Shown: positions 13,487 to 44,422 of the stretch, piece after piece
How positions within the stretch are numbered: position 1 is the first letter of the stretch
Layout of the letters: each line of letters begins with the position of its first letter
NCBI GenBank assembly: GCA_034440515.1
Contig: JAWXCF010000038.1
Location: 344 to 64,343, forward strand
Direction: 5' to 3'
Length of the DNA: 64,000 bases
From: Bacteroidota bacterium
GTDB lineage: Bacteria; Bacteroidota; Bacteroidia; CAILMK01
Notes under the pieces: model-generated
Databases searched by the model: none
What the model was told of the DNA's origin: nothing
What the model saw: the letters and a program-made list of their open reading frames with translations, nothing else
Position numbers and translations under genes: made by a program

Positions 13487-16400
13487 TTAGTTTTTACTAG
13501 ATAATCTATCATATACGTCACGACTGCCTACTACAATGTCTTCAAAGTCTCTAACACCAGTACCGGCAGGGATTCTGTGACCTACTATTACGTTCTCTTT
13601 CAACCCATTCAGTGAGTCAATTTTACCTGCTATTGCAGCTTCGTTTAACACCTTAGTAGTTTCTTGGAAAGACGCCGCACTTAAGAAACTCTGCGTACCT
13701 AAACTGGCACGTGTAATTCCTTGTAGTAACGGACTTGTAGTAGCACTAATAGCCTCAGCAGCCTCAACTAATTTTTTATCTTGGCGTTTTAACTTACTAT
13801 TTTCTTCGCGTAGCCTACGACTAGTTATAATCATACCTGGCGTTAAGTCTGGGCAATCACCTGGTTCAACTATTACTTTCTTATCGTAAATGTTGCTATT
13901 TTCTAGCAATACCTCCCATTTATCAACAGCCTCATTCTCTAAAAATCTGGTATGTCCAGGGTTTTCTACCAAAACTTTCTGCATCATTTGACGTACTATG
14001 ACTTCAATGTGCTTATCATTGATTTTTACACCCTGTAGTCTATATACCTCTTGTATTCCATTAAGAATGTACTGTTGAACTGCATATGGTCCTTTAATTT
14101 TCAATATGTCAGCAGGCGTAATGGCACCATCACTTAATGGTTCACCAGCCTTAACAAAGTCATTCTCTTGAACTAAGATGTGTTTGCTTAATGGAACTAA
14201 GTATTTCTTTTGCTCACCTTCCTTACTTGTTATGATTATCTCTCTATTACCCCTTTTGATACCACCGAAACTGATAGTTCCATCAATCTCTGTAATTACT
14301 GCTGGGTTAGACGGGTTACGCGCCTCAAATAATTCTGTAACACGAGGCAAACCACCTGTAATGTCACGAGTCTTACTTGTTGCTCTTGGTATTTTCACCA
14401 AAATCGCACCTGCATCTACAGCTTCACCATCATCTACTACTATGTGGGCACCTACAGGTAAATTGTACTCTCTAAGTGTTTCCCCATCTAAGTTATTGAT
14501 TATAATGGTAGGAATTTTATTTTTAACACGAGTTTCAGTAATTACTTTTTCACGGTGACCAGTTTGCTCATCGACTTCCTCACGGAATGTAATACCCTCT
14601 GTTATGCTATCATAGAAAATTTTACCAGGGAACTCACTCAATATTACTGAGTTATATGGGTCCCAATGACAAATTCTATCTTCTTTTTCAATTATCTGAC
14701 CATCAATTACGTGCAGGAATGATCCATAAGGAATATTAAATGAGGCCATCATTACGTTGGTACGCTCATCTATAATTCTTATTTCACCACCGCGACTTAG
14801 TACTACGTTGGCTATACCCTCTTCAGACTTAGTATCAAACTTAACTGAAACTACGTTCTCGAACTCTAACCTACCAGGAGACTTAGCTAAATGCTGAGAC
14901 TCACTCGCAATCTTAGATGCTGTACCACCCACGTGGAATGTACGAAGTGTTAACTGTGTACCTGGTTCACCAATTGATTGTGCTGCAATAACACCTACTG
15001 CCTCACCACGTTGTACCATACGACCACTACTCAAGTTTCTACCGTAGCACTTTTCACAAACACCACTTCTACTTTCGCAAGTCAGTACAGACCTAATCTC
15101 AATTTCTTCAATTAAGCTCGAATCAATGATTTTAGATATATTTTCATCTAACTCTGTACCAGCAGCTGATATTAATTCGCCTGAAATTGGATCATATATA
15201 TCGTGAAGGGTAGTTCTACCTAATATTCTTTCAAATAAGGTTTCAACTATTTCTTCATTATCTTTTAATGCAGTGATTGGTAAACCACGAAGTGTACCAC
15301 AATCTTGTTGACGAACAACAACATCTTGTGCCACGTCGTGCAAACGACGAGTTAAGTAACCGGCATCTGCTGTTTTTAGTGCAGTATCGGCAAGACCTTT
15401 ACGAGCACCGTGTGTAGATATGAAATACTCAAGAACTGACAGACCTTCTTTAAAGTTGGCTATAATCGGATTCTCGATAATCTCACCTGCGCCACCGCCA
15501 CCAATGTGTTTACGTGGTTTTGCCATTAGACCCCTCATACCTCCTAGTTGACGGATTTGCTCTTTACTACCACGTGCGCCACTATCTAGCATCATATATA
15601 CAGAGTTAAAGCCCTGATTATCATTAGCTAAATATTTCAACAAGTTGTCGGTTACACGGGTTGTAATACGTGTCCATACGTCAATTACCTGATTATAACG
15701 CTCATTATTAGTTATGAAACCATTGTTATAGTTGTCAGTAATTTCATCTACCTCTTCTTGTGCATTGTCTATTAAGCTAAATTTCTCTGAAGGTACAGGA
15801 ACATCACTTAGATTAAAGCTAAGACCACCACGGAATGCATAGTGAAAACCTAACTCTTTAATTTCATCAAGGAATTTAGCAGTTGATGCCAATCCTGTTT
15901 CTTGATATACTCTTGTGATGATTTCTCTTAAAGATTTCTTACTTAATAGCTCATTAATATAACCCATTTTAGCAGGTACTACTTGATTAAATAGTAATCT
16001 ACCAATTGTAGTTTCTATCAATTTATTTTCTAGCTCACCATCTTCTTTTTTCACATCTGCACGCACTTTAATTACTGCGTGTAATGCTACTTGACCGTGG
16101 TCATAAGCTATAATGGCTTCTTCTGGGCTATAAAACTTCAGACCTTGACCTATTACAGTTTCGGTTTCAGTACTAATGCGTTGTTTAGTAATATAATATA
16201 AGCCTAATACCATATCTTGAGATGGTACACAAATAGGGTTACCATTTGCTGGGTTCAATATATTATGCGATGCCAACATCAGTAATTGTGCCTCTAGTAC
16301 TGCAGCGTGTCCTAGGGGAACGTGAACGGCCATTTGGTCACCATCAAAGTCGGCGTTGAAACCAGTACATACTAATGGGTGAAGTTGTATAGCTTTACCC

Positions 16401-17773
16401 TCAACCAATTTAGGTTGAAATGCCTGTATACCAAGTCTGTGCAACGTTGGTGCACGATTCAGCATTACAGGGTGGCCTTTCAATACGTTTTCTAGGATGT
16501 CCCAAATTACTGGGTCTTTTCTATCAACTATTTTCTTAGCAGATTTTACAGTTTTAACTATACCTCTCTCTATTAGTTTTCTAATAATGAATGGTTTGAA
16601 TAACTCTGCTGCCATATTTTTAGGCAATCCACATTCGTGCATTTTCAACCAAGGACCTACTACGATAACAGAACGACCAGAATAGTCAACCCTTTTACCT
16701 AATAGATTTTGACGGAAACGCCCTTGTTTACCTTTTAGCATATCGCTTAAAGATTTTAATGGACGGTTACCTTCAGTTTTTACTGCGTTAGCTTTCCTAC
16801 TGTTGTCAAATAAACTGTCAACAGATTCTTGCAACATCCTCTTTTCATTTCTTAAGATAACCTCTGGGGCGCGTATCTCTAAAAGTCTTTTCAGACGATT
16901 GTTTCTAATGATAACGCGACGATACAAGTCATTTAAGTCTGATGATGCAAAACGGCCACCATCAAGTGGAACTAATGGACGTAATTCTGGTGGAATGACA
17001 GGTAATACCTTTATGATCATCCACTCAGGTTTATTCACAAAGTTTTTATTGGCAGATCTAAAACTTTCTATTACTTTTAGTCTTTTTAGTGCCTCATTTT
17101 TACGTTGTTGAGAAGTTTCGGTAAATGCAGCGTGCCTTAGGTCATAAGAAAGCTTGTCTAAGTCTAATTTCCCAAGTAGCTCAACCAAGGCCTCACCACC
17201 CATTTTGGCGATAAATTTCTGTGGATCGCTATCATCAAGTAATTGATTATCCTTAGGTAATGTCTCAAGGTGATTCATATATTCCTCCTCATTAAGGAAG
17301 TCCATAGTCTGTACACCTTCTTCTTCTTTTACACCTGGGCTGATTACTATGTAACGCTCATAATAAATAACCAACTCTAGCTTCTTAGCAGCTAGACCCA
17401 GCATATACCCTATTTTGTTAGGTAAAGATTTGAAATACCAAATGTGTGCAACGGGAACTACTAGGTTTACGTGACCTAAACGCTCACGACGTACCCTTTT
17501 TTCAGTTACCTCTACACCACAACGGTCACAAACTATCCCTTTATAACGAATACGTTTGTATTTACCGCAGTTACACTCATAGTCTTTAACAGGTCCAAAT
17601 ATTCTTTCACAGAATAAACCGCCCATTTCTGGTTTGAATGTACGGTAGTTAATTGTTTCAGGTTTTGTAACCTCTCCGTGAGACCATTCTAAGATAATCT
17701 CCGGTGAAGCCAAACCAATTGAAACTGTGCGAAAATCGCTTTGCAGTTTCTTATTCTCTCTTTTTATAGCCAT
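13487..17773 (-). CDS. rpoC: DNA-directed RNA polymerase subunit beta'
   Basis: 1428 aa with zinc-finger cysteines (CNCGKYK…CDRCGVEV) and the [12 protein letters not shown] catalytic motif. Length is typical for Bacteroidetes beta'. Confidence 0.98.
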
Positions 17774-17819
17774 TAGACCGTATTGAGATGTTTTTTTGTG
17801 TTATTAATAATAAAAATCC

Positions 17820-20800
17820 TTAGTCTAGATTAATATCTAGCGCTAAACCTTTCAACTCGTTTAACAATACGTTAAACGATTCTGGCAATCCTGCATCAGG
17901 TAAGTTATCTCCTTTTACTATTGCTTCATATGTTTTGGCACGGCCAATGATGTCATCAGATTTAATAGTTAACATTTCTTGCAAGATGTTGGAAGCACCG
18001 AATGCCTCAAGTGCCCAAACCTCCATCTCACCAAAACGCTGACCACCAAACTGACTTTTACCACCTAACGGCTGTTGCGTAATTAAGCTGTATGGTCCGA
18101 TAGAACGCGCGTGCATTTTATCATCAACCATATGGCTCAATTTCAACATATAGATTACCCCAACTGTTGTCGGTTGGTCAAATCTATCGCCAGTCAAGCC
18201 ATTATATAAGTAGGTACGACCATTTAAAGGAAGCTCTGCTTTCTCAATGTAGCTATTAATCTCTGCCTCAGTTGCACCGTCAAATATTGGAGTAGCGAAC
18301 TTTACTCCAAGTTTTTTACCTGCCCAGCCTAACACCGTTTCGTATATCTGACCTAAGTTCATCCTACTAGGTACTCCTAATGGATTTAATACAATGTCAA
18401 CAGGCGTTCCATCTTCTAGGAATGGCATATCCTCACGTGGTACTATCTTAGCCACAACACCTTTATTACCGTGACGACCTGCCATCTTATCACCTACTTT
18501 CAACTTACGTTTTTCAGCGACATAGATTTTGGCCAATTTCAATACTCCAGTAGGTAATTCATCACCTACTGTAATAGAAAATTGTTCACGACGATAAAGC
18601 GCCATAGCTTCGTTTACTTTAGCACGATAGTTCTGAATTATTTTCTTAGTTTTATCAGACCTATCAGTGTCACTTGACCAGTTATTTGGATCAACCTCAT
18701 CAAAGTTTATAGCGCGTAAAATTGTTTTACCAAACTTAGCAGCTTTAGGTACTATTTCCTCACCGTATATGTTTTTCACACCACTTGACGTTTTACCATC
18801 TAACAGTATGATCAACTTTTCATTCAACAATTCTTTTAGTGCTGAGATTGTCTTGTTGTTATCGCTCTCTAACTTAGTTAATAGTGACTTTTCTTTATCG
18901 CGATTAACACGTTCTTTACGCGCACGTTCAAACAATTTCTTAGTTATTACAACACCGTTTCCACTTGGTGGTACACGTAGCGACACGTCTTTTACGTCAC
19001 CAGCTTTGTCACCAAATATTGCACGAAGTAGTTTTTCCTCAGGTGAAGGTTCACTTTCACCTTTAGGAGTGATTTTACCAATTAGAATATCCCCTTCTTT
19101 TACTTCAGAACCAATTCTAATCAGACCATTTTCGTCTAGATTTTTAGTTGCTTCCTCACTTACGTTAGGTATATCATTGGTAAATTCCTCTACGCCACGT
19201 TTGGTATCTCTTACGTCTAATTCGTATTCATCTATATGAATGCTAGTAAACCAGTCTTCACGTACAGCATTTTCATTAATTACAATGGCATCTTCAAAAT
19301 TGTAACCCTGCCAAGGCATAAATGCCACAACCAGATTTCTACCCAATGCTAATTCGCCTTGTTCAGTGGCAAAACCATCACATAGTACATCACCTTTCTC
19401 TACCCTTTGTCCTTTACGAACTATTGGTTTTAAAGTGATGCAAGAATTTTGGTTAGTACGACGGAACTTTACTAGATTATAAGACTTAGTATCACCATCA
19501 AAATCAATTAATTTAGAATCTTCATCTTTGTCATAACGCAACCTAATTAATTGCGCATCTACATAGTCTATTACTCCAGGACCTTCGGCAACTACTAGTG
19601 CTCTACTATCCATTGCTATACGTTTCTCAATTCCAGTACCAACTATTGGTGCTTGCGGTCTAAGTAATGGTACAGCCTGACGTTGCATATTCGATCCCAT
19701 CAGGGCACGATTCGCATCATCGTGTTCTAAGAACGGGATTAGTGAGGCAGCAATAGATACGATTTGGTTAGGCGAAACATCCATATATTCAAGACTAGTT
19801 GGCTCAACAATGGTGAAATCACCGCTTTCTCTTGCCTTAACACGCTCAAGAGCAATGTTACCATCTTTGTCAACTTCTGCTATTGCCTGACCTATCATTT
19901 TGCCATCTTCTTCTTCAGCACTTAAATAGGTTACATTTTCTGTAATTACTCGACCATCAGTTACTTTACGGTATGGAGTTTCTATGAAACCCATTCCATT
20001 AATTTTAGCATATACTGAAAGTGAGCTGATCAAACCAATGTTTGGACCTTCTGGTGTTTCAATGGTACATAAACGTCCATAGTGAGTATAGTGTACGTCA
20101 CGAACCTCAAAACCTGCACGCTCACGACTAAGTCCACCTGGTCCTAGCGCTGACATACGTCTTTTGTGCGTAATCTCTGCCAAAGGATTCGTTTGATCCA
20201 TAAACTGAGATAACTGATTGGTACCGAAGAAACTATTAATTACACTACTAAGAGTACGAGCATTTATCAAGTCTGTTGCAGTAAAGACCTCATTATCACG
20301 AACGTTCATACGCTCACGAATAGTTCTGGCCATCCGTGCTAAACCTACACCAAACTGTGCATACAATTGCTCACCAACTGTACGAACACGTCTGTTGCTT
20401 AAATGGTCAATATCATCTATATCAGCTTTACTGTTGCTTAACTGAATTAGATATTTAATGATTAATATAATGTCATCTTTAGTTAATACACGGGTATCAA
20501 TAGACTCACTTAAACCAAGTTTCTTGTTGATACGGTATCTACCTACTTCACCTAAGTCATATCTTTTATCAGAGAAAAACAACCTATCGATGATGCTACG
20601 TGCAGTTTCATCATCTGGCGGGTCAGTATTTCTTAATTGTCTATATATGTGCTCTAGGGCTTCTTTACCAGTATTTGATGGGTCTTTCTGTAAAGTATTG
20701 TAAATGATGGCATAGTCATTTACTTCAATATCTTCACGGTGTAAAAATATACTTTTAGTATTAGCCTCTAGTATTGCATCAATGTGAGCTTCCTCTAGAT

Positions 20801-21626
20801 GCGTATCTCTTTCTATTATAATTTCGTTACGCTCTAATGATACAACCTCTCCAGTATCTTCATCAACTAAGTCTTCTACCCATTTGCGAAGTACCCTAGC
20901 TGCAAGTTTTCTACCTAGTAGTGATTTTAGCTTAGCCTTACTAACTTTAACTTCCTCTGCCAATTCAAAAATTTGCAAAATGTCTTTGTCAGATTCGTAA
21001 CCTATTGCTCTAAGTAGCGTTGTAACTGGGAATTTTTTACGACGGTCAATATATGCAAACATTACGTTGTTCACGTCTGTAGCAAACTCCATCCAACTTC
21101 CTTTAAATGGAATAACCCTAGCACTGTATAGTCTGGTACCATTGGTATGGAAAGTCTGACTAAAGAAAACACCAGGAGAACGGTGCAATTGAGATACAAT
21201 GATGCGTTCAGCACCATTGATTACAAATGTACCACGAGGAGTCATATATGGTAGTGTACCAAGGTAAACGTCTTGAACTATTGGTTCGAAGTCTTCGTGT
21301 TCAGGGTCAGTACAGTATAGTCTAAGTTTTGCCTTAAGTGCTACACTATGGGTTAAGCCACGCTCTATACACTCATCAATGTTGTATTTAGGTGGATCAA
21401 TGAAATAGTCTAGGAACTCAAGTACATAAAGACCTCTTGCATCACTGATTGGAAAATTTTCAGCAAATACCTTATAGAGACCTTCTTCCCTGCGATCTTC
21501 CGCAGGAGTATCTAATTGAAAAAATTCATGGAATGATTTCAATTGAACCTCCAAGAAATCCGGATAGTTTAGCGGATTTGGGGTTTTCCCGAAATTAATA
21601 CGGGTATTTTTCTTTTGAGCAGTCAA
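17820..21626 (-). CDS. rpoB: DNA-directed RNA polymerase subunit beta
   Basis: 1268 aa with a conserved N-terminus (…[21 protein letters not shown]…) and the GRHGNKGV motif near the C-terminus. The apparent start codon is TTG (21624-21626), with no in-frame ATG before an upstream stop. Confidence 0.97.
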
Positions 21627-24843: not shown

Positions 24844-24916
24844 CACGGGCGGAGAGGCTCGAACTCCCAACCTGCGGTTTTGGAGACCGCTGCTCTACCA
24901 ATTGAGCCACACCCGT
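24844..24916 (-). tRNA. tRNA-Trp (anticodon CCA)
   Basis: The reverse complement folds as a cloverleaf (GCTC…GAGC D-arm, anticodon loop CT-CCA-AA, GTTCGAGCC T-arm). It sits between tuf and secE as in many bacteria. Confidence 0.85.
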
Positions 24917-25017
24917 ATTATTTAAAATACTTAAATCTCTGTCTAATTGCAATAAAAGGATAATATACGAGGGCACTAATACAGTACCCCCATACTTACC
25001 TATTTATTATTAGTTAA

Positions 25018-26205
25018 TTACTTAACTATTTCAGTTACTTGACCTGCACCTACTGTACGACCACCTTCACGAATTGCGAAACGAAGACCTTTCTCCATCG
25101 CAACTGGAGCGATTAATTTTACAGTGATAGATACATTATCGCCGGGCATTACCATTTCCATTCCTTCAGGTAAATTGATTTCACCAGTGATATCTGTAGT
25201 ACGGAAATAGAATTGTGGACGATATTTGTTAAAGAATGGTGTGTGACGACCACCTTCTTCTTTCTTCAATACATAGATTTCAGCTTTGAAGTCTGTGTGC
25301 GGAGTGATAGAACCTGGTTTACAGATTACCATACCACGACGTAAAGCTTCTTTCTCAATACCACGAAGTAGAAGACCAGCATTATCACCAGCTTCACCAC
25401 GGTCAAGTATTTTACGGAACATCTCAACACCTGTAACAGTAGATTTCAATGGTACTTCATTGTAACCTACGATTTCTACTGGATCTCCAGTGTTAATAAC
25501 GCCACGTTCGATACGACCAGTAGCAACTGTACCACGACCTGTGATTGAGAAAACATCCTCTACAGACATTGCAAAATCAAGATCAACAGCACGTGGAGGC
25601 AATGGAATGTAGCTATCTACATTTGTCATTAACTCCTCTACAGTTTCAATCCATTTTGGGTCATCGTTTAGTGCACCTAATGCAGAACCGCGAATAACTG
25701 GAGCATTGTCACCATCAAAATCGTAGAAAGACAACAGATCACGAATCTCCATCTCAACTAAGTCAAGAAGTTCTTCATCATCCACCATATCCACTTTGTT
25801 CATAAACACTACTAAAGCAGGTACACCAACCTGACGGGCTAATAGGATGTGCTCACGAGTCTGAGGCATAGGACCATCAGTAGATGCAACAACCAATATA
25901 GCACCGTCCATTTGTGCAGCGCCAGTTACCATGTTTTTAACATAGTCAGCGTGTCCAGGACAATCTACGTGTGCGTAGTGACGGTTAACAGTTTCATACT
26001 CCACGTGTGAAGTATTGATTGTAATTCCGCGCTCTTTTTCTTCAGGTGCGTTATCGATAGAATCGAATGAACGCTGTTGAGCGAAACCTTTCTTTGACAG
26101 AACGTGAGTAATAGCCGCAGTTAGCGTTGTCTTACCGTGGTCGACGTGACCGATGGTACCAATGTTGACGTGTGGCTTCGTCCTTTCAAATTTCTCTTTT
26201 GCCAT
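25018..26205 (-). CDS. tuf: Elongation factor Tu
   Basis: 395 aa, [28 protein letters not shown]…, a canonical EF-Tu. Confidence 0.98.
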
Positions 26206-26262
26206 GACGGGTTAAATTATAAAATTGATTTCGTTAATTTCGTTAAGTAAATAAAAGCGATG

Positions 26263-26334
<72 letters not shown>

Positions 26335-26521
26335 TTTACGTCTAATATTGTGTATTCTTCCAGTAAATCTACTTTTATTTCTACATAAAATTAGAGGGGC
26401 AAAGATAATGAAAAGTTATCTTTAAATCCACAAAAACTTTATAAAGTAATAAATTAATTTAATTCGGACCTTTTCTAGAAAATATTTTAGTCTAGATACC
26501 TGCTTCAATTTTAATATCGTG

Positions 26522-26594
26522 AGCGGGAGACGAGACTCGGACTCGCGACCCTCAGCTTGGAAGGCTGATGCTCTACCAACTGAGCTACTCCCGC
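26522..26594 (-). tRNA. tRNA-Gly (anticodon TCC)
   Basis: RC reads GCGGGAGTAGCTCAGTTGGTAGAGC…, anticodon loop CT-TCC-AA, perfect 7-bp acceptor stem. Confidence 0.85.
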
Positions 26595-26762
26595 ATAGAT
26601 ATTAATATGTTAATCGTAAAACCGTCAGCGTATCAATAGATACTTTGGTACTAACTGTCTTAGTAATTATTGGGCAGATATAGTCTTTTTCTTCAAGGCT
26701 ATATGAGGAAGCATATGACTAACGATTCAAGTAACATTATGAATCAGATTAGTGCCTTGAGC

Positions 26763-26785
26763 AAAAAAAGAGATTATATCTCTTT
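26763..26785 (-). terminator. Terminator-like hairpin between tRNA-Tyr and tRNA-Gly
   Basis: Plus strand reads aaaaaaAGAGAT-tat-ATCTCTtt, a near-perfect palindrome. On the minus strand the hairpin is followed by U6-7. It lies inside a 210-bp spacer within the tRNA cluster upstream of tuf. Confidence 0.35.
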
Positions 26786-26805
26786 ACAATAATTGCAATC
26801 TTAAG

Positions 26806-26888
26806 TGGGGAGAGAAGGATTCGAACCTTCGAAGAATTACTTCAACGGAGTTACAGTCCGTCCCATTTGGCCACTCTGGTATCTCCCC
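26806..26888 (-). tRNA. tRNA-Tyr (anticodon GTA), long variable arm
   Basis: RC reads GGGGAGATACCAGAGTGGCCAAATGGG…GACTGTAACTCC… with a long extra arm and GGTTCGAATCC T-arm. It closely resembles bacterial tRNA-Tyr. Confidence 0.85.
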
Positions 26889-26953
26889 AGCTTTATCTTT
26901 AAACTTATATATAATGCCTGATGTAAAATAAAGAGCCGACAGACGGACTCGAA

Positions 26954-27027
26954 CCGCCGACCTGCTGATTACAAATCAGCAGCTCTACCAACTGAGCTAT
27001 GCCGGCTTACTCTACATATGAAATTGA
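26954..27027 (-). tRNA. tRNA-Thr (anticodon TGT)
   Basis: RC reads GCCGGCATAGCTCAGTTGGTAGAGC…, anticodon loop TT-TGT-AA, T-arm GGTTCGAGTCC. Confidence 0.85.
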
Positions 27028-27465: not shown

Positions 27466-28389
27466 TCATTCTTTACTTTTAGGGTGAGACAATTTGTAAA
27501 TTTCCTTTAACCTGGCAATATTGGTATGTGTATAGACTTGAGTAGCTGCCAGACTGCTGTGCCCAAGTAGTTCTTTAATAGCGTTTATATCAGCCCCATT
27601 GTTTAGTAGTTCCGTGGCATAACTATGCCTAAGTGAGTGTGGATTTGTTACAGTATTATTATTAATTTTTCCTAACTCTCTATTAATTAATCTATCTACT
27701 AGAACTGGATAAAGTGGATCTCCTTTAGGGGTCAGAAACAAATTCTTCGCATTTTGGATCAAGTTTGCCCTATAGGTTAAGTAAGTGCTTATTAACTCTA
27801 CTAATGTTTTTGTGATGGGTACTATACGTTGTTTGGACCGTTTACCTAATACCTTAATCTGTAATTGTGCTAAGTCTATATTAGTAACTTGAAGCTCTAT
27901 CAGCTCTGCCCTACGTAAACCAGCACCATAGCATAGTTCTAATATCAATCTATCTCTAACAGATATAAAATCGTCTGCGACTTTATATTCTTCACTGTCT
28001 AATAATTGATTTATGTTGGCAGCGGGAATAAAGTCTATGACTCGTTTAGGCCCCTTAACAGCAGGTATTGACTTGACAGGATTGTAATTAACCTGTTCTG
28101 CTCGAATTAGGAATTTGTAGAAAGAATTAAGAGATATTCTTTTTCTATTAATGCTTTTGTTTGCCAGACCTTCTGCTGATAATGCATATATCCAGTTTCT
28201 AACTTGGGGTATAGTTATTACATTAACATTTGATTGCTGCAAATCAAGTATTTTTTCTTCTTTGGTTTGAATGAAGCCAACATTAATAAAGCTGAAGAAT
28301 TGGGTAACATCGCTGATGTATGCTGATATTGTATTGGGAGAATATCTGCGTTCATTTTTCAAATATTTATGAAATGAATCTATCAACAT
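27466..28389 (-). CDS. Tyrosine recombinase, XerC/XerD family
   Basis: 307 aa with an N-terminal SAM-like domain and a C-terminal catalytic domain bearing R…HxxR…Y residues (…HSLRHSYATELL…LGHSSLAATQVYTH…). The rpsU-xerC-hpf arrangement is conserved in Bacteroidetes, so this is a housekeeping recombinase rather than a mobile-element integrase. Confidence 0.8.
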   Translation of the reverse strand: MLIDSFHKYLKNERRYSPNTISAYISDVTQFFSFINVGFIQTKEEKILDLQQSNVNVITIPQVRNWIYALSAEGLANKSINRKRISLNSFYKFLIRAEQVNYNPVKSIPAVKGPKRVIDFIPAANINQLLDSEEYKVADDFISVRDRLILELCYGAGLRRAELIELQVTNIDLAQLQIKVLGKRSKQRIVPITKTLVELISTYLTYRANLIQNAKNLFLTPKGDPLYPVLVDRLINRELGKINNNTVTNPHSLRHSYATELLNNGADINAIKELLGHSSLAATQVYTHTNIARLKEIYKLSHPKSKE

Positions 28390-34904: not shown

Positions 34905-36299
34905 ATGAATACACAAAGACTACATCAGCTCATTTCCTCGCCTATGTTGTTGGAAATTAACACAGACCTACCCTATCTACAGCAATTGACTCAAGATTAT
35001 CCCTATTTTAATACAGGGCACAGTCTAATGGCAAAGTTGTTATATGATCAAAAAAATATTAAGTCTTCAGATTACGTTAAAAAAGCATCACTGTACTCCG
35101 GTGACAGAAGTGTTTTATATAATTTAATACAAACTTTAGAAATGGTAGAAGATGAAATCTTGGTTGACTTGCCAGAAATAGAACAACCTGCTGAGCCAGA
35201 AATAGAACAAGAACCTGCACCTACTATTCAGCCATTAATTCCTGAAATTCAACCTTTGGAACCAAACGAGAACCCTGAAATAGCGCCTAATCAACCTATA
35301 GAACCAGACACTTGGCAGGAACCTTCTACACAACCTCAAACAGAACCCAATCAACAACCTAGTCCTTTCCCATTTGGTGAGACAATACCAAATTTTAACC
35401 TTGATGAAATACTACTAGGATCTGGTGTAGAAACTGAAGAGGAAATAGTAAAAGAGGAACTAATAGAAGAATTAATACCCATTGAAGTAAATGAGTCTGG
35501 TAAAAAAGAGGAAGAAGCAGATGATAAAGGCAATAAACCAACTGAGCCACCACAAGATCCTGTAAACCCAGAAACAATACCAGAGCCAGAGCACCAGCAC
35601 AATCCTATGCTGCAACCTAGCGATGATGAAGAAGAAATAGATACCGTAAAAAATCAAGAAGTAAATAGAAACGAGGATGATTTATTAGCGCCAGAAGTAA
35701 ATGAACCTGTAAATACTTTTAACCAGAGACTGCTACCAATTGCTAGCTTTGACTACTTCGCTTTTCTAGATAAATCTGGAATGAAATTAAACAATAATGT
35801 TGATACTAAAATATACAAAGTAGGTAACCTGAATAAACAAGAAATTAAATTAGACTTCTACTCTTGGTTACAACTTACCCAAACCAAAAAAGAATGGGAA
35901 ACTTTACCCTCTGAAACACCACCAGAAAAAGGTAGTGGCGATAAGGAACAAAAGCCAAACTTAGAAAAAACACCAGATGCTCCACCAGCTCCTCATAAGG
36001 AAAACCAAAACGAAGAGGAAAAATCGTTCGATGCAAATGATATCCTAAATCATTTTATAGCTACAACTCCTAGAATTAGCCAAACCAAAAGAGCCATATA
36101 TAAAGCTGAAGATAAGGCTAGGGAAAGCGATAGAGAAGATACAAGCCTAGCAACTGAAACATTAGCAGAAATATACCTAAACCAAGGTATGCACGCAAAA
36201 GCAATAGAAATTTATGAAAAATTAAGCTTGCGATATCCAAATAAAAGCAGTTACTTTGAAGGTTTAATCGCTCAGATTAAAGATAAGACTTCAGTTTAA
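34905..36299 (+). CDS. Acidic Pro/Glu/Gln-rich protein with C-terminal TPR-like helix pair (hypothetical)
   Basis: 464 aa. The central 200 aa are low-complexity (PEIEQPAEPEIEQEPAPTIQPLIPEIQPLEPNENPEI…). The C-terminus reads …LAEIYLNQGMHAKAIEIYEKLSLRYPNKSSYFEGL…, which is TPR-like. Confidence 0.6.
   Translation: MNTQRLHQLISSPMLLEINTDLPYLQQLTQDYPYFNTGHSLMAKLLYDQKNIKSSDYVKKASLYSGDRSVLYNLIQTLEMVEDEILVDLPEIEQPAEPEIEQEPAPTIQPLIPEIQPLEPNENPEIAPNQPIEPDTWQEPSTQPQTEPNQQPSPFPFGETIPNFNLDEILLGSGVETEEEIVKEELIEELIPIEVNESGKKEEEADDKGNKPTEPPQDPVNPETIPEPEHQHNPMLQPSDDEEEIDTVKNQEVNRNEDDLLAPEVNEPVNTFNQRLLPIASFDYFAFLDKSGMKLNNNVDTKIYKVGNLNKQEIKLDFYSWLQLTQTKKEWETLPSETPPEKGSGDKEQKPNLEKTPDAPPAPHKENQNEEEKSFDANDILNHFIATTPRISQTKRAIYKAEDKARESDREDTSLATETLAEIYLNQGMHAKAIEIYEKLSLRYPNKSSYFEGLIAQIKDKTSV
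35171..35210 (+). repeat. Short tandem direct repeat inside the Pro/Glu-rich ORF
   Basis: GCCAGAAATAGAACAA occurs at 35171 and again at 35195 (period 24 nt), encoding PEIEQ…PEIEQ. Confidence 0.6.
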
Positions 36300-36677
36300 A
36301 TGTTCTACTTATTATTAGTTATTTTAATCATTGCCTGCATACTGCTGGTATTTATAATTTTAGCTCAAAATCCTAAAGGTGGTGGATTATCATCAATGGG
36401 TTCAGGGGCCTCAAATCTATTAGGTGCACGTCAAGCTGCTGACTTTTTAGAAAAAATGACTTGGTATTTCGGTATTGGGATAATCGTTGCAGTGGTGGGT
36501 ACTTACTTTTTAGGTGGTGGCAGCACTACGGCTACAGCTGAGGGTGAAAAAGGCCCAGCTAAAACTTTTAAAGTAAGAGAAAACAATGGCTATATGCCAT
36601 CTGGTATTAATACCAAAACACCTACTACACAACCTGCACCTGGTCAAACTGCACCTCAATCAGAGCCTGCTAAATAA
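36300..36677 (+). CDS. secG: Preprotein translocase subunit SecG
   Basis: 125 aa with an N-terminal TM helix followed by LAQNPKGGGLSSMGSG, the SecG signature (QxxKGxGL). A second TM helix follows. Confidence 0.85.
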   Translation: MFYLLLVILIIACILLVFIILAQNPKGGGLSSMGSGASNLLGARQAADFLEKMTWYFGIGIIVAVVGTYFLGGGSTTATAEGEKGPAKTFKVRENNGYMPSGINTKTPTTQPAPGQTAPQSEPAK

Positions 36678-36733: not shown

Positions 36734-36886
36734 ATGCGCCATTAGTCTGCCAATTTTTCACTTCATTTCACGCATTTATGACAAATGAATTGACTAATCG
36801 GGTAAAAAAGAAAGCCAAATTTTCAATGGCATAATCTGTGATTATTGCCAATTGAAAACATTAACACATAATTTTTTACATAGCAA

Positions 36887-37177
36887 ATGAGTATTAACCT
36901 AAAGCCACTGGCTGACAGAGTATTAATTAAACCTGCAGCGGCAGAAGAAACAACTAAATCAGGTATCATCATTCCAGATACTGCGAAAGAAAAACCTATG
37001 CAAGGGGAGGTAATAGCAGCTGGCAATGGTAAAGTAGCAGAAGATGGTAAAGTATCTCCTCTTACTGTAAAAGTTGGTGACAGAGTATTGTATGGTAAAT
37101 ATGCTGGCACAGAAATGAATTTCGAAGGAGAAGACTACCTAATTATGCGTGAGTCTGACATTTTCGGCATTATCTAG
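36887..37177 (+). CDS. groES: Co-chaperonin GroES
   Basis: 96 aa, [37 protein letters not shown]…, a canonical GroES. Confidence 0.96.
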
Positions 37178-37239
37178 TCTAGTACGCTTAAGCGACCCAA
37201 AATCAATCACAACAATTTTTCACTTAACATTTCAAATAA

Positions 37240-38886
<1,647 letters not shown>

Positions 38887-38915
38887 TCATTACTGATTAA
38901 TCCGTTATATTACAA

Positions 38916-38952
38916 CCCGGTAGAGAGAAATTTCTATCGGGTTTTTTATTTT
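38916..38952 (+). terminator. Rho-independent terminator after groEL
   Basis: CCCGGTAGA…TCTATCGGG is a 9-bp stem with one G·U. It is followed by TTTTTTATTTT. Confidence 0.65.
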
Positions 38953-39215
38953 GTAAAATTTTAAATTCATTCCCAAGATATTTGAAAGTAGCTGATTTCA
39001 ACTTAAAATTAATTTTGTTGATTCTAAATACTTGAAGTTATCGTAAATAGTGGGACAGAAATGCTAAATTTTACATACATAAATTCTCAATTTCAAAATC
39101 AAAGCCTAAGAAAGGCAACTAACGAAAATGATATCTATATCAACTTACTTTGCATCAACTTTACTCGTTTACAATTAATAGTCAATCATACCACAGCTTG
39201 AATATATTTCTATTA

Positions 39216-39776
39216 ATGAATTTAAGTAATACTCAAAAATATTTGGGGTGTTTGGTGGTCATTTGTATTTTATTTACCTCGTGCAACAGGTATAAAATGC
39301 AATCATCTAATTCATATAGAAACTATGCTGGTTCACAATTGGTGATTCAAAAAATAGATTCAAATAGAGTACATCAAAGTGTTGAAAATCAAACATACTC
39401 AACATATCAGCTAAAAATAAATAAACCTAATAAGCCAATTTCACCCAAACTAATTACGAGTAAGTTTACCAAACAAATAGATAAAGTTAATGTGCTTCAA
39501 GCTTATATACCAAATGTTGAAGTTAAAAAAATTGAGAAAGAACCGAAATCTTGGTTATACTATTGTGGAGCTAGTATTATATTGTACGTTTTGTCAATTT
39601 TAGTTCAAATTATTTCTTTCAGTACTTTTGCCTTAGTAATAGGTTTATTATTATCACTCGCTAGCACTGCATTTTGCATAGTAGGAATTGTTCACCTGTC
39701 TAAAGTTAATAAAAATCCTAATAAAAAGAAAGAAATAGAAAGAGATAAGAAACGTGAAGACATAGATATTTATTAA
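39216..39776 (+). CDS. Paralog family member A: lipoprotein-signal protein with C-terminal two-TM hairpin and charged tail (hypothetical)
   Basis: The ATG at 39216 gives the signal MNLSNTQKYLGCLVVICILFTSC (lipobox FTSC). It has the conserved motif GSQLVIQKIDSN, a K/N/T-rich variable middle and two hydrophobic helices (ASIILYVLSILVQIISF / ALVIGLLLSLASTAFCIVGIVHL). The tail is KKKEIERDKKREDIDIY. Confidence 0.6.
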   Translation: MNLSNTQKYLGCLVVICILFTSCNRYKMQSSNSYRNYAGSQLVIQKIDSNRVHQSVENQTYSTYQLKINKPNKPISPKLITSKFTKQIDKVNVLQAYIPNVEVKKIEKEPKSWLYYCGASIILYVLSILVQIISFSTFALVIGLLLSLASTAFCIVGIVHLSKVNKNPNKKKEIERDKKREDIDIY

Positions 39777-39785
39777 TATTAATTT

Positions 39786-40376
39786 ATGAATTCAAACCCA
39801 CCAATTATGATAAAATCATACTTAAAATATCCTTACTTACTCGTTTGCTTTGCATTTATGCTTGCTTTATTTTCATCGTGTAATAGGTATAAAATGCAGC
39901 CTACAGGTTCATCTAAAAACTATGTTGGCTCACAATTGGTGATTCAAAAAATAGATTCGAATAGTGCAGCTCAAATTGTTGAAATACAATCAAGCACAAC
40001 ATCTCATCAAAAAGTAAACACTCCGAATAACATAATACGCCATCAAAGAATTGCGGCCAAGTTTACCAAAAAAATGAGTAAGGTAGATGGCATTGATGTA
40101 ATTATGCCGAAAGTTGTTTTAAAGAAAAATCGGAATGAGCCAAAATCTTGGATATTTTATTGTGGTGGTAGTACTGTTTTGTTATTTTTAGCTTCGGTGA
40201 TTCAATCTACATTTTTTAATGTTCCCGTTTTGGTTTTTTTGTCCGTAATAATATACCTAATAAGTATTGCATTTTGTATTATCGGCATCGTTCATTTAGG
40301 AAACCCTAGTAGATATTCAACCAAAAAGAAAGAAATAGAAAAAGATAAGAAACGTGAAGACATTGACATTTATTAA
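39786..40376 (+). CDS. Paralog family member B (same architecture as A)
   Basis: The lipobox LFSSC is followed by NRYKMQ…GSQLVIQKIDSN. The C-terminal two-TM hairpin is followed by KKKEIEKDKKREDIDIY. The nucleotide termini are near-identical to paralog A. Confidence 0.6.
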   Translation: MNSNPPIMIKSYLKYPYLLVCFAFMLALFSSCNRYKMQPTGSSKNYVGSQLVIQKIDSNSAAQIVEIQSSTTSHQKVNTPNNIIRHQRIAAKFTKKMSKVDGIDVIMPKVVLKKNRNEPKSWIFYCGGSTVLLFLASVIQSTFFNVPVLVFLSVIIYLISIAFCIIGIVHLGNPSRYSTKKKEIEKDKKREDIDIY

Positions 40377-40405
40377 TATTGGATTTTTGAAATCAAATTC
40401 AAAAA

Positions 40406-41023
40406 ATGTCAAAATCAAGGGTAAAGAATGTCGTTCTATTTGTAGGCATATCAATGATGTTCGTTATACTATCTTCTTGCAATATGTCACATCAACATAT
40501 TGTGGCTAATAAGTCTTATGTAAATTCTCAGTTAGTAATTTGTAAACGCTCGCCTAGTATTACTATTAGTACTATAGTGGTATCGTAGAATGTAACTAGA
40601 GAAGATAATAAATATGTTAGGCACAACCAAAAGCAACTCCTAAAAAAAACAAAGCAGAAGGCTATTACTGTTACACAGTTTGTTGCAAGACAAATGGCTA
40701 TTACAAAACTTAATAATCATACATCAAGCATTACGATTAATGACAATTCTGCAATTAAATTTATTATATTAGCGCTGCTTATTTATTTATGCTATTAGGG
40801 AAAACAACAAATTCTAACACAATAGTTTATAAAATCTAAGCACAAACATAGCCTAGTGAAAGCCAACTTTGTTAAATATTTTGTTGCACCCAAACTACAT
40901 AATTACATCGCTAATAAACAGATTAATGCGAATCCGTCTACTGGTGATTATGGCAGCAGTAATATTAAAAAGTTAGAATCAATTAGAGACAAAGAACAAG
41001 GACAGGAAATACCAGTAGATTAA
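40406..41023 (+). pseudogene. Frameshifted/degraded paralog of the same family
   Basis: A 60-aa N-terminal ORF (signal + ILSSC + …SYVNSQLVICK) terminates early. Downstream, other frames encode a TM-like remnant (…SSITINDNSAIKFIILALLIYLCY) and the charged tail KKLESIRDKEQGQEIPVD* ending at TAA 41021-41023. Confidence 0.5.
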
Positions 41024-41064
41024 TTGCATTAGCAGTAAAGAATTATAGTATTATCTAGTTTGAT

Positions 41065-41703
41065 TTGTCCACTTATTATCTAAATTCGAATTTAAACCCA
41101 CAATGTGTGACAGTTTCTAAATTAAAATACTACTTGTTCCTGAGTTTAATATTAATACTTGGGGTTTTTTCTTCTTGCAAAACGTCACAACATATTGAAG
41201 CTAAAAAATCTTACATAAATTCAAAGTTAGTTATTAGCAATCCTACACCAACTAATGTCCAAAATGATGTGGTGGTTAGGGAATATGTATCTATTGTAGG
41301 GAAAAAGTGTAAAGAGCCTAACCCATTAAAAAAGCTAGAAAGAACTAAACAGAGTATTAATTCAGCCAAACACAATGCAGGAAAATGCTTTAAAAAACCA
41401 CAGTTACCCACATATACTGCTAGTAAAAAACTTAATAGAAATCCATCATCTCCTACTTATATTACTGCAATAATATTTCTAGTATTTGCCATTGCTAGTT
41501 TTATAATATCAGCTAGCTTAGATTTTGATTTTGTTGCTTCAATTGCTTTTGTAGTTATTGGTATCTGTTTGCTTCTCATATCTGGTGTAATATTATTAGC
41601 AGGTATCATTTTAGATTTAACTTATATATCTGACAGTAAAAAACAGAAAAAAATTGACTTACAAAAAGAAAGCGAACAAGATAATGAAATACCAAGAGAC
41701 TAA
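41065..41703 (+). CDS. Paralog family member C
   Basis: Non-ATG start (TTG at 41065, or GTG at 41107 giving the signal TVSKLKYYLFLSLILILGVFSSC). It has the motifs …KKSYINSKLVISN… and a C-terminal two-TM hairpin. The tail KKIDLQKESEQDNEIPRD parallels the pseudogene tail. Confidence 0.55.
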   Translation: MSTYYLNSNLNPQCVTVSKLKYYLFLSLILILGVFSSCKTSQHIEAKKSYINSKLVISNPTPTNVQNDVVVREYVSIVGKKCKEPNPLKKLERTKQSINSAKHNAGKCFKKPQLPTYTASKKLNRNPSSPTYITAIIFLVFAIASFIISASLDFDFVASIAFVVIGICLLLISGVILLAGIILDLTYISDSKKQKKIDLQKESEQDNEIPRD

Positions 41704-41757
41704 ATAAATTTAGAAGTTGGGCAATTTGTGACTTGATTTATATGATTTATGCTTTAA

Positions 41758-42402
41758 AACCTAAATGTAAGTTCTTACAAAAAATATAAGACTAAATCAA
41801 AAATAAAATATTATTACATACACATTATCACAATATTGACGTTTAGTTTATTGTCAACTTGCAGTAAGTCAAATCAACAATCTATTGCAAATAATTCAAA
41901 TGTAAATTCTCAAATAGTAATTATCAACATTGTACCTACCATTGCCTTTAATCCAATGGATGTTCAGAGAAATTTAATTTAAATCCGATTGATATAAGGA
42001 GCCGATTCCATTAGAAAAACTGAAAAAAATCGAGGCAAAAACCTAAAGTAGCTAAATACAAATTAGTTAAGCAACTAAATATTCCGCAAATGCATACTTG
42101 TATAACACAAAAAAAAGTATAGAAATCGCTCAAGGGGTTTCTACATTGCTGTAGGAATTTTAAATGCAACTGCAATATCTTGTTTTATTGTATCCGTATT
42201 TGCACAAAATGACCAACTTTCATTTGTTTCTGTTATGGTAGGTTTTTCCTTATTAATTCTCTCTGCACCATCATTTATTATTGCTGTAATTGTAGATATA
42301 ATCTACCAATCACAAAATAAAGAAAAGAAGACAAAGCTTAATAAGCAAAAAGAGAAAAAACCAGAAATGGTGATAAAGAAAATCAATTTTCAAAAACTAT
42401 AA
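41758..42402 (+). pseudogene. Degraded paralog: N-terminal remnant (41758-41982) and C-terminal remnant (42106-42402) separated by disrupted middle
   Basis: The N-terminal remnant has no ATG and reads …ITILTFSLLSTCSKSNQQSIANNSNVNSQIVIINIVPT…* (signal + lipobox + SQIVI motif). The C-terminal remnant reads …GFYIAVGILNATAISCFIVSVF…MVGFSLLILSAPSFIIAVIVDIIYQSQNKEKKTKLNKQKEKKPEMVIKKINFQKL* (two-TM hairpin + charged tail). Confidence 0.45.
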
Positions 42403-42539
42403 CAAAATCAGCATATACTTATTTAACCTTTACAAACAAAATATTATGTTTTACAAACATTTAGCACAGAGTTAATTATTGATAGCTAGATGAAACTAAA
42501 TTTGTAGCAGTCACAATTAAGATTTACTTAATTAAAGCA

Positions 42540-43151
42540 ATGAAATATAATAGAATTTTACCCATCATTAGTTCTATAGCCATAATTTTCCTATTTACGG
42601 CTTGTAGTAAAACTAACTATTATAGCAACCAAGTATTGGTACCTGCTTCACAGTTGCTAATTCACACTCAAACCGAATATCAGGATAAGATTAATGAGAA
42701 AACGGTTTTTATTATAACTGAAGCAGCTCCTATTAAAAAAAGCAATGTTTGTAAAACTGAAATAAAAAGGAAACAAGTTCGCCAAGCAAAATTAGTAGCA
42801 CAAAAAAAGATAATTCGACAAAAATTAGCTAAATCTAGTATGTATTTACCTAAATTAATTACTTATAAATCTAACACTGCAGGTAAAGCTCCCTGGTGGT
42901 TTAATATATTAACCTTACTTACTGTAGCTGTATTTATATTTGGAATAGCTGTCACATTTGAATATAATATTCCTGGTTATGAACTAACCATTCAAGAGGG
43001 ACTTAAAGTAATGGTATTAGGTTTAATTCTAATAGCTATTATGCTATTAATATATGTAGCAAGTTATGCTAAGTCTGACAGGGCAAAATATCAAGATGAA
43101 TATATGCCACAAAACAATAACCAACAGCAACAAAAAGACTATATGAAATAG
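42540..43151 (+). CDS. Paralog family member D (divergent)
   Basis: The signal MKYNRILPIISSIAIIFLFTAC (lipobox FTAC) is followed by …ASQLLIHTQ… and a K-rich middle. Two TM helices (WWFNILTLLTVAVFIFGIAV / VMVLGLILIAIMLLIYVASYA) precede the polar tail …NNNQQQQKDYMK. Confidence 0.55.
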   Translation: MKYNRILPIISSIAIIFLFTACSKTNYYSNQVLVPASQLLIHTQTEYQDKINEKTVFIITEAAPIKKSNVCKTEIKRKQVRQAKLVAQKKIIRQKLAKSSMYLPKLITYKSNTAGKAPWWFNILTLLTVAVFIFGIAVTFEYNIPGYELTIQEGLKVMVLGLILIAIMLLIYVASYAKSDRAKYQDEYMPQNNNQQQQKDYMK

Positions 43152-43152
43152 T

Positions 43153-44322
43153 CTATTTCTCTGGATAAATCAGGTATTTTAGTCTAATTTTTTTGTATTT
43201 GTATATTCCAAGTTGCCAAGACTCGCGAATTTGCTTTGCATCTTTACCGGCTATAATCATTTGTCTAATACTAGCCGTGCCTGCTAATTTGTCAAAGAAT
43301 GAATTAAAAAATGCATCCTTTTTAACATCATTTTTATAAAAACCAATTAAAAAGTCTAGATACAATTGATTGTTGAACCTAATAAATTGCATTGCAAAAT
43401 CTTTGAGCAAGAAACCATTGCATTCAACATTAAGGTAAGGTGGATTCTCTGCCCTACCCTTTATAACTCTAGGGGTAAAGCTATAATTTCCTGCAGCGAA
43501 TTTCGGTACACCAATACATTCAAAGGCTTGATCAGTACCTCTACCCACACTTACATTAGTTCCTTCAAATAGGCAAAGACTCGGGTATAGATATACAGAT
43601 TCTAAGCTTCTAAGGTTTGGTGATGGTGGTATGGGACTATTATAAGCCATACTGTGATTATAGCCTGTACAAGGAATTACGATTAATTTACATTGCTTTT
43701 TCTTATCTAGCCATTTCTCTCCATTTATCATTTTTGCCATTTCTGCTAGGGTGCATCCATATACTATAGGTATCGGGTGTAAGCCTACGAAACTCTTATA
43801 TTTAGACTCAAGTATAGGCCCATCTATATAGAATGCATTAGGGTTTGGTCTATCTAGCAACAATAGTGGTTTTTTATTATCAGCACAGGCCTGCATTACA
43901 TAGTGTAGGGTACTTAAATAGGTATAGAATCTAGTACCTACATCCTGCACATCAAATACTAGAATATCTATCTTAGCCATATCCTGAACTGTAGGCATAT
44001 AGTTTTTACCATATAAACTCACTATTTCTACACCTGTTGCCTTATCTACAGTTGAATTAATGTGTGCCCCAGCTTCTGCATCGCCACGAAATCCGTGTTC
44101 TGGTGCAAATATTTTCACGATATTTATCCCCAATCTACTTAATGTATCTACGAGGTGCATATCTCCAATCATACTGGTTTGGTTTACTACTACCCCTACC
44201 CGCTTACCTTGCAATGTGTTGATATACTTATCTATCTGTTCATCGCCTAGCTTTAATTGTCCAAGTGCTATTGTTGATGAAATTAGAAATAAGCATAGAA
44301 TGAAGTATTTAAAATGAAGCAT
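43153..44322 (-). CDS. DUF1343 / NamZ-like exo-N-acetylmuramidase family protein, secreted
   Basis: The ORF track begins at a TTG (44337). The ATG at 44320-44322 gives the signal MLHFKYFILCLFLISSTIALGQ. About 390 aa, with an LLLDRPNPN-containing core remembered as characteristic of DUF1343. Confidence 0.5.
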   Translation of the reverse strand: MLHFKYFILCLFLISSTIALGQLKLGDEQIDKYINTLQGKRVGVVVNQTSMIGDMHLVDTLSRLGINIVKIFAPEHGFRGDAEAGAHINSTVDKATGVEIVSLYGKNYMPTVQDMAKIDILVFDVQDVGTRFYTYLSTLHYVMQACADNKKPLLLLDRPNPNAFYIDGPILESKYKSFVGLHPIPIVYGCTLAEMAKMINGEKWLDKKKQCKLIVIPCTGYNHSMAYNSPIPPSPNLRSLESVYLYPSLCLFEGTNVSVGRGTDQAFECIGVPKFAAGNYSFTPRVIKGRAENPPYLNVECNGFLLKDFAMQFIRFNNQLYLDFLIGFYKNDVKKDAFFNSFFDKLAGTASIRQMIIAGKDAKQIRESWQLGIYKYKKIRLKYLIYPEK

Positions 44323-44422
44323 AAATGATAACGACAAATAATAAGATGCAATAATATTACAGAATGGGTGTCACATTGCCGTAAAAGTCAATAATATTGC
44401 CAAGGTGAATATGGGACTTTTT

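Follow-up and report, generated by a model that had tools for sequence, protein, structure and literature searches.

The 64,000-nucleotide stretch of Bacteroidota bacterium DNA analyzed here (the window; contig JAWXCF010000038.1) contains a 4.1 kb array of low-GC DNA (0.29-0.34), placed between a terminator-like hairpin behind groEL and a convergent namZ gene and composed of six genes or remnants of genes on the same strand, each about 600 nt long, which we call A to F. The adjacent intact paralogs A and B share 50% protein identity, and their DNA is about 70% identical outside two short blocks in which the genes are almost the same. We favor, at a probability of roughly 0.55, the reading that A to E are an ordinary lineage-specific tandem birth-and-death array, where A and B are old duplicates and their blocks combine protein constraint with past partial gene conversion or a chimeric origin. 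The coordinates of the features are collected in Table 1.

Comparison of A and B by global alignment and exact mismatch counts gives for block 1 a length of 46 nt with 3 mismatches (39328, 39332, and 39362). Its exact core of 29 nt (39333-39361 = 39930-39958) occurs twice in the window, against 0 occurrences expected. Block 2 extends over 58 nt, also with 3 mismatches (39742, 39764, and 39767), and contains exact runs of 19 and 21 nt. The boundary of the tail is sharp, being 0 of 8 the identical residues in the linker and then 16 of 17 in the tail. After the stop codon, only TATT (39777-39780) is identical between both genes, and the following 15 nt have 10 mismatches; the 11 nt of shared sequence past the stop in the original prediction came from a miscount of the final codon plus the stop. 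When 39100-43200 is plotted against itself (40-nt windows, at least 34 matches), only the diagonals 39309-39387/39906-39984 and 39713-39787/40313-40387 appear, with none in 30 shuffles, and no block at least 85% identical to A or B is present in C, D, E, or F. The two predicted blocks are then real, and they stand above background at the nucleotide level, so the similarity is not restricted to protein motifs.

Table 1. Position of the array members, of the segments compared between A and B, and of the neighboring features in the window (aa, amino acids; dS and dN, synonymous and nonsynonymous divergence; ORF, open reading frame)
Feature	Position	Strand	Description
Paralog A	39216-39776	+	intact, 186 aa in the ORF list; Logan gene call also 186 aa
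Paralog B	39786-40376	+	intact, 196 aa (or 189 aa with ATG 39807); same architecture as A
Block 1 in A	39321-39366	+	NY[A/V]GSQLVIQKIDSN; partner in B 39918-39963
Block 1 in B	39918-39963	+	
Block 2 in A	39723-39780	+	last 17 codons, stop, and 4 nt (TATT)
Block 2 in B	40323-40380	+	
Fast-evolving stretch of A	39366-39461	+	32 codons; B homolog 39963-40058; dS 0.48, dN 0.50, dN/dS ~1
Old segment of A	39482-39722	+	end of middle region, hairpin, linker; dS ~2.1, dN/dS 0.21, silent sites saturated
Copy C	40406-41023	+	pseudogene; single reading frame, three in-frame stops
Copy D	41107-41703	+	intact, 198 aa; alternative TTG start 41065
Copy E	~41791-42402	+	eroded multi-lesion pseudogene
Gene F	42540-43151	+	intact, 203 aa; lipobox LFTA-C, basic middle, hydrophobic hairpin, charged tail
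Terminator-like hairpin and T-run	38914-38943	+	after groEL; consensus match only
GroES/GroEL	36887-38886		upstream of array
NamZ	43153-44337	-	downstream, convergent with array
Putative secG	36300-36677		125-aa ORF, taken as secG from size and position
TPR protein	34905-36299		464 aa; upstream of putative secG
XerC/D-type tyrosine recombinase	27466-28389	-	307 aa; Phage_integrase and SAM_1 domains; ~0.5 kb from tRNA cluster
Putative tuf	25018-26205		395-aa ORF, taken as tuf from size and position
tRNA cluster	~24.8-27.0 kb (24844-27006)		
Putative rpoC and rpoB	13487-21626		ORFs of 1428 and 1268 aa, taken as rpoC and rpoB from size and position

The silent sites of A and B do not have the same apparent age along the gene. 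Based on a codon alignment, with Nei-Gojobori dS and dN calculated by segment and codon usage derived from the long ORFs of the window (32 kb), the whole gene gives a dS of 0.99 and a dN of 0.35 (dN/dS 0.35). The signal peptide (dS 2.5, dN 0.57, dN/dS 0.23) and the transmembrane hairpin (dS 2.8, dN 0.38) are much more diverged than block 1 (dS 0.25, dN 0.03, dN/dS 0.11) and the tail that forms block 2 (dS 0.33, dN 0.02, dN/dS 0.07), and the silent sites of the fast-evolving stretch 39366-39461 are also well below saturation. With an overall dS of about 1, and above 2 in the signal peptide and the hairpin, the duplication is not recent, contrary to the original prediction. Nor is the core hypervariable, since the transmembrane part is under purifying selection (dN/dS 0.13) and only 39366-39461 reaches a dN/dS of about 1.

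The same pattern appears when only identical residues are considered. In the blocks, 26 of 30 such codons are identical against 14.7 expected at saturation, whereas outside the blocks the count is 33 of 60 against 27.1. By region, identical codons number 28 of 35 in 39285-39481 against 16.7 expected; in 39482-39722 they number 12 of 31 (expectation 13.2), and in the tail 14 of 16 (expectation 8.4). Moreover, the rare codons TTG, GTG, AAG, and CGT are common to A and B in the blocks, and C, D, and E use other synonymous codons at the same S-Q-L-V-I motif. This indicates that protein constraint alone does not fix the codons of the blocks.

These data bear directly on an account without any conversion, in which a single old duplication with uniform silent divergence would leave the blocks as the product of constrained motifs, AT-biased codon usage, and sampling noise. 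Block 1 does encode a motif found soon after the lipobox cysteine in all of A to E (Y-x-[GN]-S-[QK]-L-V-I), the tail is rich in two-fold codons with a strong bias (AAA 0.75, CAA 0.75, and GAA 0.64), and the tests corrected for segment selection are marginal or non-significant (P = 0.036-0.23). However, with the codon usage of this genome, the 26 of 30 identical codons in the blocks would have a probability of about 1e-5 at saturation, whereas the remainder of the gene matches the saturation expectation, and the codons common to both genes include non-preferred ones (TTG 0.19, GTG 0.12, and AAG 0.25). Also, the non-conserved stretch 39366-39461 has a low dS despite its high dN, something that protein constraint cannot explain. 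We consider this account the strongest alternative to the favored reading, possible but doubtful.

Because the segments were compared post hoc, permutation tests were used in which the best segment was searched in each shuffle. For third-position identity, the change-point test gives P = 0.036, with 39309-39419 as the best segment (86% versus 50%), and for codon identity at identical residues P = 0.055, with 39483-39698 as the low segment (39% versus 80%). Several points weigh against a contribution of conversion. Once the choice of segment is corrected, the heterogeneity of silent sites is marginal (P = 0.036-0.055), and neither the run tests nor the scan tests reach significance (P = 0.13-0.23). 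Only A and B can be aligned at the DNA level, and public data yielded no orthologous array with which concerted evolution could be tested phylogenetically. The residues of the hydrophobic segment may be identical by state in part, which would inflate the apparent dS there. Finally, identity continues for only 4 nt past the stop, which leaves the conversion tract without non-coding support. The evidence for a mosaic history of A and B is then of moderate strength and not decisive. For the segmental gene conversion of the original prediction, this means that the nucleotide mosaic and the low dS of the blocks fit conversion or a chimeric origin, but with a significance that becomes marginal after correction.

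In the favored reading, the array would have grown by tandem duplication and would now be losing copies in the ordinary birth-and-death manner, C and E having become fixed pseudogenes. The two blocks would correspond to the protein modules under the strongest purifying selection, the post-lipobox motif of all copies and the C-terminal tail, and compared with the signal peptide and the transmembrane hairpin, the silent sites in the blocks and in 39285-39481 would be much younger. This difference would go back to one or two past partial conversions of the RecA type between the adjacent A and B, or to an unequal crossover generating a chimera, and 39366-39461 would have drifted nearly neutrally afterwards. 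Exact matches of 19-29 nt are on the order of the minimal length for RecA-dependent exchange. Those in the blocks are the only A/B substrates long enough for homologous exchange, so the occasional deletion or duplication of one 600-bp unit would be mechanistically possible.

Any such homogenization must be old. The window was compared with three further assemblies from this population (L001, L082, and L083, from the two SRA runs SRR6448214 and SRR6448207 and the Joint Genome Institute (JGI) metagenome 3300020201), which are 99.88-99.92% identical to it with zero indels. The differences are isolated single-nucleotide polymorphisms (SNPs; 4 in L001, 7 in L082, and 12 in L083), with no clustered mosaic patches in A or B, and the stop codons of the pseudogenes C and E are the same in the assemblies (those of C in L001 and L083). 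The comparison of sister strains proposed to reveal recombination thus shows no mosaic differences. The divergence of the blocks, 5-6%, is at least 50 times the diversity of the population (0.08-0.12%), which places any homogenization far before the common ancestor of this population.

Several minor features were observed in these alignments. SNPs are about two times denser in the array than in the flanks, and most of those in the array fall in the pseudogenes. In E, positions 42009-42010 show a CA to TG double substitution in both L082 (the JGI metagenome) and L083 (an SRA run), and the new bases are not the homologous ones of D. At 39534, the window has G and L001 has C, which is the base of B at the homologous position 40131. 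This SNP would be compatible with a micro-conversion, but it was not counted as evidence of conversion, being the chance of such a coincidence 1/3 for one site.

The same assemblies make the collapse of a repeat or a chimeric contig in the metagenome-assembled genome the least probable of the explanations weighed for the blocks. It is true that each of the three is interrupted within the array (L001 stops at 41771, L083 begins at 40020, and L082 begins at 41991), and low GC, low coverage, or strain heterogeneity are possible causes of these breaks. Nonetheless, L001 (SRR6448214), an independent Logan assembly from a separate run, spans 36873-41771 and thus all of A and B with a single SNP, located in A, and the blocks are not 100% identical, unlike collapsed repeats.

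The remaining members show different degrees of decay. In C, the lipobox (ILSS-C) and the N-terminal motif are intact and the second transmembrane helix is lost or degenerate. It had been described as frameshifted, whereas it retains a single frame, and its lesions are base substitutions (nonsense) and not tract slippage. D shows 24-29% identity to A and B and is a member of a C/D/E subgroup. A split remnant had been proposed at 41758-42402; a remnant exists there, pseudogene E, with multiple lesions. Its ATG start and the canonical lipobox match are gone (LLSTC misses the pattern), several stops occur in either frame, and the middle KEPIPLEKL, read in the +1 frame, matches KEPNPLKKL of D. Its hairpin and tail can still be read at 42235-42402. 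F was considered as a sequence paralog of A to E and rejected, since BLAST gives no match and hhalign a probability of 6%, covering only the signal peptide. It is retained for its same architecture and same position only, its homology to A-E being not demonstrable. No further copies of the family were found elsewhere in the 64-kb window.

The tandem arrangement, the conserved ends, the two pseudogenes, and an enrichment of A/T runs of at least 7 nt (2.4 per kb in the array versus 0.83 per kb) could recall a system of programmed variation. In this case, the array would work by cassette antigenic variation or as a phase-variable contingency locus, with the conserved ends as anchors and the pseudogenes as silent donors. 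The original prediction went in this direction, proposing cassette-type diversification in an actively turning-over contingency locus. Neither agrees with the data. No truncated promoterless silent cassettes exist in the array, because every copy, pseudogenes included, has its own N-terminus and lipobox region, and the pseudogenes have no DNA near-identical to A or B. As simple-sequence repeats, Tandem Repeats Finder reports in the array only AT-rich chance repeats of 2-3 copies. The longest homopolymers, A8 (A7-A8 tracts at 40642-40649, 42023-42029, and 42109-42116), are invariant among the assemblies, and the alignments of the three assemblies contain zero gaps, so no tract-length polymorphism is seen in this assembly-level comparison. 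The inverted repeats do not exceed chance, being AT-rich matches of 70-89% complementarity separated by kilobases, and the neighbors examined (part of the window ORFs was scanned) include neither a recombinase nor a reverse transcriptase, so that an invertible promoter or a shufflon does not fit either. The closest tyrosine recombinase belongs to a housekeeping cluster at a distance of 11 kb. Moreover, variable lipoprotein families usually keep the signal peptide as their conserved anchor, whereas in A and B it is one of the most diverged parts. Programmed variation is thus largely refuted, and we regard it as very improbable.

A function at the nucleotide level was also considered, where the blocks would be kept as DNA or RNA elements, for example with the A-rich tail doubling as the translation-initiation region of the next gene, or as an RNA structure or regulator site. 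The initiation regions of Bacteroidota are typically purine-rich and unstructured. Block 2 is purine-rich and predicted to be unstructured, and from the block-2 ends the ATG of B is found 9 nt after A and that of C 29 nt after B. Against this, C is a pseudogene, leaving nothing to initiate downstream of B, block 1 is in the middle of the gene without such a role, and the nucleotides are not conserved in C, D, and E. RNA structure in the four block copies is not significant (z = -0.5, 0.05, -1.2, and -0.7), and the array has no Rfam family. Taken together, this makes a nucleotide-level function an unlikely explanation.

A different view of the array would assign its genes to a lineage-restricted family of envelope-anchored proteins, where the exposed middle 39366-39461 would be under diversifying selection (exerted, for example, by phage or antagonistic mat neighbors) and the anchors (post-lipobox motif and C-terminal tail) would be homogenized by recurrent short-tract conversion. 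If true, this deep-branching lineage of uncultured Bacteroidota would diversify its proteins slowly and through recombination, but we give it little credence.

Returning to the birth-and-death array with past partial conversion, comparisons with the tufA/tufB, Borrelia, Neisseria, and Mycoplasma systems help to place it. Concerted evolution by partial gene conversion is known for tufA/tufB of Salmonella and E. coli and for tandem outer-membrane or lipoprotein paralogs. The A/B pair resembles tufA/tufB in having adjacent copies in the same orientation and tracts with a silent divergence that appears far lower than in the rest of the gene. However, the A/B tracts are short (about 50-200 nt) and 5-6% diverged, so that homogenization would be partial and old, and ortholog-based proof is absent. 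Birth-and-death evolution of lineage-specific tandem lipoproteins is exemplified by the Borrelia Mlp/Erp families and other species-specific lipoprotein arrays. These families share with the array the tandem lipobox paralogs, the intact beside decayed copies, a rapidly evolving mature domain, and the lack of homologs outside the lineage. In this case, the differences are that A-F is chromosomal, in a core neighborhood (putative rpoBC and tuf; groESL), with no plasmid or prophage link, and that a C-terminal two-helix membrane hairpin is unusual for lipoproteins.

The likeness to Borrelia vlsE/vls, Neisseria pilE/pilS, and Mycoplasma vsp/vlp (conserved ends, divergent interior, pseudogene-like neighbors, and envelope genes) is superficial. 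Besides promoterless truncated cassettes, the array lacks flanking repeats common to all copies, simple-sequence repeat tracts, invertible elements, a recombinase, and strain variation, and its 5' signal-peptide region is not conserved. A diversity-generating retroelement would differ too, since the mismatches in the blocks (C/T, T/C, A/G, G/A, A/T, and T/C) are not adenine-specific and the neighbors examined include no reverse transcriptase. The case illustrates that conserved ends with a divergent middle in adjoining paralogs are not by themselves a sign of programmed variation, and that constraint at the protein level is told apart from conversion by measuring silent-site divergence in each segment and comparing it with population data.

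The proteins A to E belong to a new, undescribed family, although the evolutionary pattern itself is well known. The core lipobox pattern (PROSITE PS51257-type) matches A, B, C, D, and F, with the cysteine at residues 22-32, and these proteins would be lipoprotein-type substrates of signal peptidase II, as judged from this pattern. After the conserved motif, A to E have about 85 aa rich in K/N/Q/T, a hydrophobic two-helix stretch of about 50 aa, and a charged tail, an arrangement from which their membrane topology is deduced. In A, the signal peptide ends in the lipobox LFTS-C (Cys codon at 39282), and next to it come a low-confidence or disordered region of approximately 85 aa, the hydrophobic hairpin of two helices (about 39549-39707), and finally KKKEIERDKKREDIDIY, the charged tail. 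In B, the Cys codon is at 39879 and the hairpin at about 40146-40307. In the NCBI protein for A (P0002, 159 aa), the start is placed at an internal Met (39297), which leaves out the signal peptide and lipobox. This start is probably a misannotation, the longer form being backed by the Logan call (ATG 39216) and by homology to B. An AlphaFold2 model of A, from an alignment of 4 sequences, has a mean pLDDT (predicted local distance difference test) of 52, too low for a meaningful fold search. Residues 22-110 are below 50, and helices are modeled at 112-165 (the hairpin, pLDDT 70-83) and 168-185 (the C-terminal tail helix).

No family above threshold was found in Pfam, NCBIfam, PADLOC, or PHROGs, all hits being far below the cut-offs and on the transmembrane hairpin. 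A weak sub-threshold resemblance is to the Chlamydia Inc CT214 family, DUF4870, and DUF2207_C, membrane proteins whose bilobed hydrophobic hairpin likewise consists of a pair of transmembrane helices lying close together and totaling about 50 aa. However, the scores are far under the curated cut-offs (for example, 21 bits versus 90), and the likeness is compositional only. A word-indexed search of 5.8 billion proteins with B returned A and B alone (SGJ04_03615/03620, hypothetical protein), and an exhaustive profile search (A+B+D+F) of 1.84 billion representatives returned only A, D, and F plus one marginal match. The latter, P0005, is a 103-aa protein with two transmembrane helices and a KREIKREKRIRD tail (E = 4.5e-4), encoded at 1709-2020 of an unrelated Logan contig (L084) next to a glutaredoxin gene. 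It was rejected as a relative given this unrelated context, and the similarity is probably compositional.

When GTDB species genomes were scanned with NamZ as the anchor, the best NamZ reached 57% identity, and tblastn detected no array homologs in 80 Bacteroidota loci. Nothing was found in JGI metagenome contigs with protein B or with the exact block-1 29-mer, nor in viral contigs with D. The family of small putative envelope proteins is then an orphan, lineage-specific one, known only from one uncultured Bacteroidota population. The locus documents such a family, with a lipobox and a C-terminal membrane hairpin, in a core housekeeping neighborhood and may be a small example of lineage-specific gene birth and death. 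Its practical value is modest, and it makes no long-standing question testable.

The window comes from the core part of the chromosome of an uncultured Bacteroidota bacterium, and besides the genes in Table 1, the neighbors include an FtsX-type permease, LptE, TetR, and an RND pump. The hairpin after groEL suggests that the array would be a transcription unit apart from groESL. A Bacteroidota-type -7 motif (TAnnTTTG) is found at 39010-39017, 206 nt upstream of A and with TTTG 25 nt further upstream, and others are at 42497-42504, 43 nt upstream of F, and at 39623, within A and 163 nt upstream of B. The intergenic gaps preceding B, C, D, and E contain none. This layout, composed of consensus matches only, hints at one A-to-E transcript and a separate transcript for F. 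A sigma-70 promoter scan gave 39 sites versus 29 ± 6 in shuffles, with nothing above chance. No terminator-like hairpin was detected between F and namZ, which converge with 1 nt between their stop codons (F ends at 43151 and namZ at 43153).

Finally, two neighboring genes deserve mention. The XerC/D-type gene, upstream of the putative tuf, has no link to the array and is probably a housekeeping recombinase. The protein encoded at 34905-36299 has TPR-like matches at its C-terminus only, weak and under the cut-offs, and contains a long low-complexity region rich in P/E/Q with imperfect PEIEQ / PEIQP repeats.

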